A stretch of 64,000 nt of DNA. Source: Candidatus Heimdallarchaeota archaeon (GTDB lineage Archaea; Asgardarchaeota; Heimdallarchaeia; Heimdallarchaeales; Heimdallarchaeaceae). Below are positions 39,044 through 41,209 of this stretch, piece by piece. Position 1 is the stretch's first letter. Every line of letters begins with the position of its first letter. Made by a program: the position numbers and the translations under genes. The stretch covers positions 3,414 through 67,413 of the forward strand of contig JAEOTE010000090.1 in assembly GCA_016839945.1 (NCBI GenBank), read 5' to 3'. Below the pieces are notes generated by a model. The model was not told where the DNA came from. It made no database searches and saw nothing but the letters and a program-made list of their open reading frames with translations.

Positions 39044-41209
39044 TTAAGGTTCTAAAAGCATTCTTAATGTTACAAGAACAGCATCTATTTCATTCTTTAA
39101 TTTTTCAATAGTTTGTTGTCTTTCTCTGAATAACTTTACGTATGATTCTTTAGTCATGCTCTTCTTAACACGATATTCCTGCTGTAAAGCTCGCAGATTT
39201 CTTCTTTCTTCAAAGAGTTTTCTTTCAGAGATTTCAATTTTCTGAACTGAATCCTTGTATCGTCCACCATGTTTCACAAGATTCTCTTTTGTGACCTTCA
39301 AAGATTCTTCTTCAGAGCGTAATCTCTTTTCAAGTTTTGTTCTTAGATCTTTTCCTTCTTTTGCTTTCAGTTTCTTAGCTGCAATCTTTGCTCTTGTCTC
39401 TCTAATTCTCTCTTTAAGCGATAGAACCTCTTCATATTGTTTAACAAACTCTTCAAGTTCATCTACAGGAATGAATTCCTTTTCTTCTTCCAGTACATAT
39501 TCCTTGGCAGTTTTTGTTGACCACCTTATTCCTAAATAAATGGCAAAAATTACTCCGACGGATATTACTTGGAAGAAGTAAGTTACCCACATATTAAAGC
39601 CAGAATAATTATAATAAATTACCATTGGAGAGTTATCACTTCCAGAGAATTGTGTAGTTTCAAAATGTAAAATTCTTTTAAACCCCAAACTGCTAAAAGC
39701 GAATTTTACATCATAGCCTGTAAGTGGAATTACTTGATAAGGATCAGCACCTTCGTAAACATATGATTTATAGACTGCACCTTTTGGTAAGACTATATCT
39801 ATGTATAGATTATCCACTGTCCAATTTATTATTGAACAAGGTGAGAGTGTTAATTTGTAGTTAATTGATGTTTGTTCCTTAGAAAGAAATGTTTCCATTG
39901 GAACTTTGTAAACTATTGTAAAAGTCATTTGTTCTCCATGGAATAAGGGGTAACGTGGAAATATTACTAAACCCGGATAGTTTGGAAAAATAGTGTCTCT
40001 AAGATTATACGACCCTCTTTCAAAGAATCCTTGTTCGTCAAGCTGTGAATAAAAGTTCAGTTGCCCAAGTTCGTCTGCAAGTGATAAGACAGATGAGTTT
40101 TGGGGAAGAATTATTACAAAAGCGTTCAAACCAAAAAGCTTAACTTGTGTCATAGGAGAATCACTTGGTCTTTCAGGCCCCAAGAAAAGGATATTTTGTG
40201 TTTCAGTAACTTTGATTAAACCAAGTGGTTCAATTTCGACTTTTCTATAAACTTCTGTTGCTTTGAATAATTTTGTATTAGTTGCTTCTTCTACCGCTTC
40301 ACCAGTACTGACTGATTGAGTATAAACATTCATTAACAAATCGTCTTCATAGGATTGAGAATAATTAAACGGTCCTCTAGTTATATTTGTCCATTTTAAT
40401 ACCCCTGCTGCAGCTTGGGATACATAAATTACATCTGCTGTGTTATTATTTGGAGTTACTGTGTATTCTGCATTGTCAATGAAGTTGTCATTTCCTTGTT
40501 TATTTACCTGCGCTTCTCCTTTAACTAGTGGAATATTATTAATTAGAGGATAAAGCAATTCTCTATAATGAAGAAGTTGCTCACCTGCTAGTATCTCATA
40601 AAAATAAGGGGTAGCAAATTCTATATAACTAACAAGATAATAGTGTGCATCTTTTCCAATGCTTGATTTATCAACATTAAATGGAACCATATACGTTGTA
40701 TAATCATCTGACTTATAGTAACTATAAGTACGTGTAGCATTTTTGAGATTGATATCTCGAAAAGTTTCATTTACTACATGAAATCCAATAAAGGAGATAT
40801 TATCTACATTAATATTCGGGAGAGTATAATTGAAGTAAACAAGAGATTCATTGCCAATAACATTCAATTCAACTGAATCAATTAATGTGACTACGCCATA
40901 TTGCTCAAAACTGATTGATCTATTAAAATTTGCTGTTGCATTAAACCCATAAGTGTAGTTTGCAATAGCATTAAACTTAACATTGCTAATTGGAGATATG
41001 GGAGTATTATTCATTACACTTGGCGGATTTGAATATAGATCAGAATTCGAATTTGCATTGATTACTCCAAACATAGGTAGAAATGATATACCAATAATAA
41101 GAAGTATAATCATAGGTAATATTGTGTTTTTGGTTTTTTGCATTAGTAAAACCTCATTTTTTGTAGTCTTGTCCAGAAAGAGGAGGAACAATTTTAAATA
41201 TTTTGGCAT
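39044..41209 (-). CDS. ribophorin I / OST1-like type I membrane glycoprotein
   Basis: 721 aa. Signal/anchor, extracytoplasmic domain of about 520 aa with about 15 N-x-S/T sequons, one TM ([20 protein letters not shown]), and a Lys/Glu coiled-coil tail of about 150 aa. Motifs [21 protein letters not shown] and [11 protein letters not shown] resemble human RPN1 [21 protein letters not shown] and [11 protein letters not shown] (recalled from memory). The start may be the Met at 41143. Confidence 0.6.
   Translation of the reverse strand: [721 protein letters not shown]

Follow-up and report, generated by a model that had tools for sequence, protein, structure and literature searches.

The 64,000-nucleotide stretch analysed here (the window: positions 3,414 to 67,413 of contig JAEOTE010000090.1, Candidatus Heimdallarchaeota archaeon assembly GCA_016839945.1) carries a minus-strand gene for the Heimdallarchaeial orthologue of OST1/ribophorin I. 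This type I membrane glycoprotein very probably serves as a non-catalytic partner of AglB/STT3 and docks ribosomes through its tail. Both its sequence and its fold show homology to OST1 of the eukaryotic oligosaccharyltransferase (OST). An earlier reading made from the letters of the DNA (the sequence-only reading) had called the open reading frame (ORF) at 39044..41209 a ribophorin I/OST1-like protein, and the Pfam, profile and structure matches all bear this out. The protein scores 43.6 bits against Pfam Ribophorin_I (PF04597), well above the gathering cut-off of 25 (E = 2.8e-11), and its residues 94-560 align with nearly the whole profile (positions 5-435 of 437). No other Pfam family matched at E up to 10, and the NCBIfam scan of the protein returned only noise; no S-layer or adhesin family, the kind of competing match that the sequence-only reading had anticipated, appeared in either scan.

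It is also evident from searches with a profile of the family (40 members) against the PDB sequence set that the resemblance is specific. The profile matched human RPN1 (6s7o_E, E = 1.1e-11), yeast Ost1 (6c26_1, E = 6.4e-5) and the OST1 tail of strain MK-D1 (8whn_A, E = 7.2e-5), with nothing besides these below E = 0.08; the matches to UspA1 are non-significant (E = 0.08 to 0.95). Three peptides, at amino acids (aa) 417, 468 and 530, had been likened to motifs of human RPN1, VVHYTFNKV among them, and they do fall in register with those motifs in the hidden Markov model alignment. The AlphaFold2 model has a mean predicted local distance difference test (pLDDT) score of 79 and a predicted template modelling score (pTM) of 0.63. 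When this predicted structure was compared with PDB entries, cryo-electron microscopy structures of OST included, the eight best Foldseek matches were without exception OST1/RPN1 chains from the OST complexes of human and yeast (E = 3.7e-29 to 2e-20), with target-normalised TM-scores (TMt) of 0.58-0.77, the value of 0.77 belonging to 6s7t_E. The best match to any other fold falls 13 orders of magnitude behind (E = 6e-7) and is to the beta-sandwich at the N-terminus of M1 aminopeptidases and LTA4H.

Read from its first in-frame ATG (41209), the ORF is 721 aa long. This longer form is probably not the one made; ATG 41143 is the probable true start, giving 699 aa, because nearly all homologues are of about 699 aa and begin at the same methionine, because a GAGGT motif lies 7 nucleotides (nt) upstream of it, and because the TATA-like sequence TATTTAAAAT sits downstream of ATG 41209 and about 48 nt upstream of ATG 41143. 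TATTTAAAAT is a candidate archaeal promoter. Beyond the stop codon, the oligo-T tract TTCTTTTTTTTTCTTTTTT is likely to act as an archaeal transcription termination signal, and it is followed by a second TATA-like element ahead of the next ORF, an arrangement suggesting that OST1 is probably transcribed on its own. These TATA-like and oligo-T elements were picked by eye in place of a bacterial promoter/terminator scan: a sigma-70 scan returned 16 sites against 17.6 expected from shuffled sequence, and a hairpin-terminator scan found none, neither model being appropriate for archaea.

The predicted topology is that of a type I membrane protein, with a signal peptide, an extracytoplasmic domain and, towards the C-terminus, a single transmembrane (TM) helix. 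By Kyte-Doolittle hydropathy the protein has two hydrophobic segments and no more (aa 26-54 and aa 539-563 in the 721-aa numbering), in agreement with the N-terminal signal/anchor and single TM segment described in the sequence-only reading, and AlphaFold2 places one long helix across the TM region (residues 515-545). Signal-peptide cleavage is only predicted; a possible cleavage site before NS fits the -3/-1 rule as judged by inspection, and the signal peptide of MK-D1 OST1 is cleaved in HeLa cells (PMC11417166). The signal peptide and the linker that follows are poorly conserved (column conservation 0.42) and modelled with low confidence (pLDDT below 50 at residues 1-64). The extracytoplasmic part comes to about 485 aa, somewhat shorter than the approximately 520 aa claimed earlier, and its folded portion (aa 65-514) consists of two beta-sandwich lobes whose strands mostly have pLDDT of 80-94. 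Its net charge is -18.

The estimate of about 15 N-x-S/T sequons proved exact: 15 were counted, all of them between the two hydrophobic segments and none in the tail, with 13 of the 15 in the folded ectodomain. Shuffled ectodomain sequences give 6.4 +/- 2.3 sequons (P ~2e-4), so the excess is real. Nine of the 15 (N68, N74, N105, N125, N233, N253, N260, N349 and N440 in the 699-aa numbering) are kept in at least 37 of 40 relatives. The conservation of these nine sites suggests that Heimdallarchaeial OST1 is probably itself N-glycosylated.

No other part of the protein is as well conserved as the cytoplasmic tail. Its mean column conservation in the Heimdallarchaeial family is 0.82, compared with 0.66-0.68 in the two ectodomain lobes. 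It had been described as a Lys/Glu-rich coiled coil of about 150 aa; it is indeed rich in Lys, Glu and Arg, but the model shows a short linker leading into a four-helix bundle of about 140 aa (helices at 560-588, 594-623, 628-660 and 665-697, pLDDT 81-90). The bundle matches 8WHN, the cytoplasmic domain of MK-D1 OST1 solved by Carilo et al. 2024 (PMC11417166), over residues 5-158 of 161, with E = 0.0015 from the single sequence and E = 7.2e-5 from the profile, and the alignment of the family profile with RPN1 extends into the human cytosolic domain. These comparisons establish homology between the tail and the ribosome-binding domain found in both MK-D1 OST1 and human RPN1, whose tails pull down ribosomes (PMC11417166). 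Its net charge is +10 here and ranges from +7 to +14 across the family, and at 31 tail positions 90% or more of the sequences have Lys or Arg. Such conserved basic charge would be compatible with a retained contact to ribosomal RNA.

Among characterized proteins, OST1 of MK-D1 (Candidatus Prometheoarchaeum syntrophicum, WP_147663064.1) shares the whole layout of signal peptide, ribophorin domain, one TM helix and four-helix bundle. It is shorter (607 aa, compared with 699 aa), and the additional length of the window protein lies in the N-terminal linker and in ectodomain insertions. MK-D1 belongs to Lokiarchaeia and the window to Heimdallarchaeia; their tails are distantly related (E = 1e-3 to 1e-4), and the tail assayed for binding is that of MK-D1. 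Human RPN1 (chain E of 6S7O and 6S7T, chain O of 8B6L) has the same fold over the ectodomain, TM helix and cytosolic bundle, with 666 aligned columns between 8b6l_O and the window model (E = 3.7e-29), and the motifs PRxPLFxG and (I/V)LPxGA and the strand preceding the TM helix are common to the two proteins. RPN1 resides in the endoplasmic reticulum membrane as part of the nine-subunit OST-A/B, whereas the window protein is presumably in the cell membrane; RPN1 also has far fewer glycosylation sites than the 15 sequons found here. Yeast Ost1p (6EZN A, 6C26 1, 8AGB E) matches in the luminal beta-sandwich and the single TM (E from ~1e-20 to 6e-22, TMt 0.68-0.74). Yeast Ost1p is of 476 aa and its alignment to the family profile runs out close to where the TM helix begins (profile position 515, chain residue 445); to our knowledge, it has no cytosolic four-helix bundle. 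The window protein has one, like the metazoan RPN1 form. Heimdallarchaeial orthologues such as those of Heimdallarchaeota AB_125 (P0024) and Candidatus Heimdallarchaeum endolithica (P0050, CP084167.1, named 'Ribophor...' in UniRef), are of about 699 aa with 45-56% identity over the full length, and their differences from the window protein are those of ordinary orthologue divergence.

The neighbourhood of OST1 is also conserved among relatives. On its upstream side are divergent DeoC, MutS and MutL genes; downstream come a 138-aa ORF, ThiF, a Yip1-family gene, a hexapeptide transferase, a ribbon-helix-helix (RHH) protein, an archaeosortase and an island of glycosyltransferases of families GT4 and GT2. 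This window order is common to contigs whose OST1 is 85% and 56% identical. AB_125 and Ca. H. endolithica both keep OST1 between MutL-MutS and a group of four genes (ThiF, the hexapeptide transferase, RHH and Yip1), and these four are still nearby in Ca. H. endolithica even at 45% OST1 identity. The glycan island had been placed 1.4 kb from OST1. That distance holds to the end of the Yip1-family gene (37621); the nearest gene clearly related to sugars ends at 36906, 2.1 kb off. This gene encodes a hexapeptide-repeat N-acetyltransferase of about 187 aa. Among PDB proteins it comes closest to WlbB (3mqg, E = 3e-46), with QdtC and WxcM-like proteins next.

Seven more distant lineages were sampled for OST1 gene context. 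In three distant Heimdallarchaeial lineages, a gene for a hexapeptide transferase of about 187 aa immediately precedes OST1 in the same orientation, and in a fourth an unannotated 186-aa ORF occupies the same position. The transferase is the gene most consistently linked to OST1; in the lineage of the window it is 2 to 3 kb off. This linkage may reflect a functional tie of OST1 to the synthesis of acetamido-sugar glycans. Three distant lineages, including a Bathyarchaeota-like one, carry a small 4Fe-4S ferredoxin (62-83 aa) directly downstream of OST1, a gene that does not adjoin OST1 in the window. In one distant Asgard lineage, SecY divergently adjoins OST1 within a ribosomal-protein cluster (S8 and L6 upstream, L27A/L15 downstream), which is a genomic link of OST1 to the translocon and the ribosome. 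One distant contig (L011, 1..10551) carries MetRS, eIF2-beta, DUF424, NMD3 and RIO1 near OST1, together with an Arf-family small GTPase and an EMC3/TMCO1-family insertase. The same five genes sit 16-24 kb into the window, in a translation and ribosome-biogenesis cluster (16416..23615) that also has eIF1A and a KRR1-like KH protein. Therefore, much of the recurrence among OST1 neighbours is probably inherited gene order.

ThiS adjoins OST1 in two distant lineages and ThiF is close by in the window, which raised the idea of a UFM1/UBA5-like ubiquitin-like modifier acting on the translocon. This idea is unsupported, and we consider it very improbable. The window ThiF is an ordinary E1 of the MoeB/UbaA/SAMP-E1 type with C-terminal CxxC pairs; it is closer to E. 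coli MoeB (1.4e-45) than to UBA5 (~1e-21), NCBIfam names it MoeB and SAMP E1, and old macro-synteny explains the recurrence of ThiF/ThiS instead.

By analogy with the eukaryotic complex and with the work on MK-D1, OST1 would reside in the cytoplasmic membrane and accompany the catalytic AglB/STT3 as a partner with no catalytic activity of its own. Its TM helix and ectodomain would scaffold the complex near the SecY/Sec61 channel and its basic four-helix bundle would dock onto the large ribosomal subunit, such that nascent chains leaving the translocon could be N-glycosylated co-translationally, as they are with eukaryotic OST-A. The linkage to a WlbB/QdtC-type transferase and the adjacency to SecY are consistent with this role. 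A more far-reaching possibility, which we put forward tentatively, is that Heimdallarchaeial OST1 is mainly selected for ribosome docking, and that in the archaeal ancestor of eukaryotes an OST-A-like unit of ribosome, SecY and OST, glycosylating proteins co-translationally, was already at work at the plasma membrane. It is suggested by a basic tail more conserved than the ectodomain, by the secY adjacency in one lineage and by the recurrent pairing with an N-acetyltransferase; the idea itself has already been put forward by Carilo et al. 2024 (PMC11417166).

Several observations weigh against the proposed identity and role. Identity to human RPN1 is only about 14%. We know of no Asgard OST complex that has been isolated so far. 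In the 64 kb, a Pfam search covering every ORF from 100 aa upwards, as well as the gap ORFs, turned up neither AglB/STT3 nor OST3/6 nor any small or other OST subunit, and a six-frame scan of the same DNA found no WWDxG motif. The precomputed Pfam annotations of syntenic contigs contain no OST subunit either, and Ost4, Ost5 and Dad1 were absent from the small gap ORFs by Pfam, which may be too insensitive for such short proteins. Membership of OST1 in a complex therefore rests on homology, and the statement in the sequence-only reading that the gene marks a eukaryote-like N-glycosylation apparatus went too far. In Ca. H. endolithica the glycosyltransferase island is not beside OST1, so that linkage of the two is not obligatory. 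A scattered distribution of agl genes has been reported as normal in Asgard genomes (PMC11284389). Lastly, ribosome binding by an archaeal protein is known solely for the Lokiarchaeial orthologue, and with human ribosomes (PMC11417166).

The lack of OST partners nearby raises the question of whether the ribophorin I fold works here without AglB, as a ribosome receptor or as a translocon accessory or chaperone at SecYEG, its recruitment to OST being a later, eukaryotic event. The conservation of a ribosome-binding-type tail above all other regions would fit this, as would the placement of OST1 beside SecY and ribosomal protein genes in one lineage. A glycoproteomics study reported no Ost1 in P. 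syntrophicum, which does N-glycosylate its proteins (PMC11284389), contradicting the study that found one (PMC11417166). We nevertheless judge such a stand-alone function unlikely, since the ectodomain too is well conserved and can be superposed on its eukaryotic OST1 counterpart, which touches STT3 and other subunits within the complex, and since a nucleotide-sugar N-acetyltransferase is recurrently linked to the gene. Furthermore, other OST subunits have been reported, Ost3, Ost4 and Ost5 in Asgard genomes and Ost2, Wbp1 and Swp1 in Heimdallarchaeia (Eme et al. 2023, PMC10307638).

Two other explanations are effectively refuted. A generic, heavily glycosylated surface protein of the S-layer or adhesin kind, built of beta-sandwich domains and similar to ribophorin I by chance, would account for a large sequon-rich extracellular domain with a C-terminal anchor, and an archaeosortase gene is 3.3 kb away. 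It would not account for a PF04597 match above the gathering cut-off over the full profile, for profile matches specific to RPN1/Ost1, for a Foldseek preference for OST1 of more than 13 orders of magnitude over other folds, or for a tail homologous to 8WHN, and no S-layer or adhesin family was matched. A eukaryotic origin, by contamination of the assembly or by recent transfer, could be imagined for a family best known from eukaryotes. Conserved gene order refutes it: the neighbours are of archaeal type, and their order is kept across many independent Asgard metagenome-assembled genomes (MAGs) and a closed 3.3-Mb Heimdallarchaeum genome. The gene also has no introns and has a Shine-Dalgarno-like motif, its GC content conforms to a window that is uniform at ~31-33%, and the low identity to human RPN1 is not that of a recent arrival. 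Orthology to OST1/ribophorin I is thus the reading we retain.

Each of the 52 close homologues of the protein (44-100% identity) belongs either to an Asgard MAG or to a metagenome contig without a name; most of those named are labelled Heimdallarchaeota or Heimdallarchaeaceae, and all but one of the 52 have a precomputed PF04597 match. When 1.84 billion representative proteins were searched exhaustively with the profile, 542 relatives scored at E up to 1e-3, and one distant cluster of these includes a Bathyarchaeota protein. The view that homologues outside eukaryotes are essentially restricted to Asgard archaea thus holds for the close homologues but not for this distant cluster, nor for the report of OST1 in both TACK and Asgard archaea (PMC11417166). 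Therefore, presence of the family alone is no proof of Asgard origin. The earlier assignment of the contig to Asgard archaea is right because of the labels of the close homologues and the gene order shared with Heimdallarchaeota AB_125 and Ca. H. endolithica. The closest named homologue (P0002, 89% identity) is labelled 'Candidatus Thorarchaeota archaeon', whereas the other named relatives are Heimdallarchaeota or Heimdallarchaeaceae; this label is probably an error of MAG taxonomy in the public record.

Asgard OST1 is already well documented, and the identification made here, although correct, does not introduce a new kind of system. Public protein data already include a 100%-identical protein (P0001), which has a precomputed PF04597 match. 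OST1 was recognized as an Asgard eukaryotic signature protein in an earlier report cited by Eme et al. 2023 (PMC10307638), Wu et al. 2022 listed OST3, STT3 and ribophorin among the proteins that every Asgard phylum has, closed Heimdallarchaeum genomes included (PMC8813620), and Carilo et al. 2024 provided the structure and biochemistry of MK-D1 OST1 (PMC11417166). OST1/ribophorin I is one of the classic signature proteins that connect the rise of the eukaryotic secretory pathway with Asgard archaea, and the window offers a full-length Heimdallarchaeial example with a confident model, one that marks its contig as Asgard. It would be a reasonable construct for studies of ribosome docking or OST assembly in the clade closest to eukaryotes. 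What is added here, as leads for specialists, is the tail as the most conserved region, the nine kept sequons, the link to a WlbB-like gene in several lineages and the link to SecY in one. The coordinates of OST1, its parts and the associated features are collected in the table.

Table. Features of the OST1 locus, its surroundings and the corresponding loci of distant lineages (L007 to L014). Positions without a lineage label refer to the window.
Feature	Position	Strand	Details and basis
OST1/ribophorin I coding sequence (probable start)	39044..41143	-	699 aa plus stop codon (39044..39046); ORF, homologue starts, PF04597, PDB profile matches, Foldseek
Signal peptide, aa 1-30 (predicted)	41054..41143	-	Hydropathy; MQKTKNT, hydrophobic core, then INA
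Asn/Ser/Pro-rich linker, aa 31-64	40952..41053	-	Poorly conserved, low confidence
Extracytoplasmic ribophorin I domain, aa 65-514	39602..40951	-	Pfam, AlphaFold2 strands, Foldseek, sequon conservation
Single TM helix, hydrophobic core aa 517-541	39521..39595	-	Hydropathy; AlphaFold2
Cytoplasmic four-helix bundle, aa 560-699	39047..39466	-	8whn_A matches, AlphaFold2, conservation, charge
TATA-like element TATTTAAAAT, candidate archaeal promoter	41191..41200	-	Read from sequence
GAGGT Shine-Dalgarno-like motif	41151..41155	-	7 nt 5' of ATG 41143; read from sequence
Oligo-T tract TTCTTTTTTTTTCTTTTTT, likely termination signal	39018..39036	-	19 nt, begins 8 nt past the OST1 stop; read from sequence
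Orphan 138-aa ORF downstream of OST1	38536..38952	-	Family of 134-138 aa
ThiF (E1-like)	37708..38457	-	Near OST1
ThiF (E1-like) or ThiS (ubiquitin-like beta-grasp), distant lineages	L007 9508..9861; L009 7168..7455; L011 812..1054		Near OST1
WlbB-like hexapeptide-repeat N-acetyltransferase	36337..36906	-	~187 aa; best PDB match WlbB
Hexapeptide transferase or ORF in matching position, distant lineages	L008 7310..7870; L011 4246..4809; L012 4327..4890; L013 4349..4909		
Small 4Fe-4S ferredoxin, distant lineages	L009 10184..10378; L010 9238..9426; L014 7109..7360		
OST1-secY locus	L014 3273..7103		Contig JBHLRO010000016.1, GCA_048882505.1
Polytopic membrane ORF in the glycosyltransferase island	25019..26674	-	551 aa

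The 138-aa ORF immediately downstream of OST1 was considered as a hidden OST or translocon partner and rejected. Its product is a soluble, all-helical bundle (AlphaFold2 pLDDT 89, pTM 0.84) with no fold match in the PDB (best E = 0.55) and no Pfam family. The 49 homologues (52-96% identity) occur in Heimdallarchaeaceae only, and the gene appears to have its own TATA-like element. Ca. H. endolithica lacks this ORF, as well as the glycosyltransferase island, at that position beside OST1, and the 138-aa ORF that it has at a similar position is unrelated.

The so-called glycan island (23871..36906) is of mixed content. It holds three GT4 genes and one GT2 gene, a weak polysaccharide-deacetylase-like ORF, the archaeosortase (34784..35785) and the WlbB-like acetyltransferase, but also polyamine genes, namely a BpsA-type branched-chain polyamine synthase (27389..28549) and an Orn/Arg decarboxylase (28658..29950), along with a metallo-beta-lactamase-fold protein and a CxxCxxCC protein. 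The 551-aa ORF of the island encodes about 8-10 predicted TM segments followed by a C-terminal soluble region of about 150 aa with several sequons. Such a layout is often seen in GT-C-type transferases or glycan polymerases. Checked as a possible divergent AglB, the ORF showed no Pfam or NCBIfam match and no WWDxG motif, so it is not an obvious AglB.

Elsewhere in the window, a tRNA gene (16221..16328, minus strand) probably contains an intron, because it spans 108 nt for a model of 71 positions. Two proteins, of 400 aa (12914..14116, plus strand) and 300 aa (62561..63463, plus strand), have the bactofilin domain, which belongs to a polymer-forming cytoskeletal family known mainly from bacteria. 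At 50316..52212 (plus strand), two DUF1616 membrane proteins flank a 179-aa ORF with a signal-anchor and a TM segment; this arrangement lies downstream of an S-adenosylmethionine synthetase gene and is kept in related contigs.

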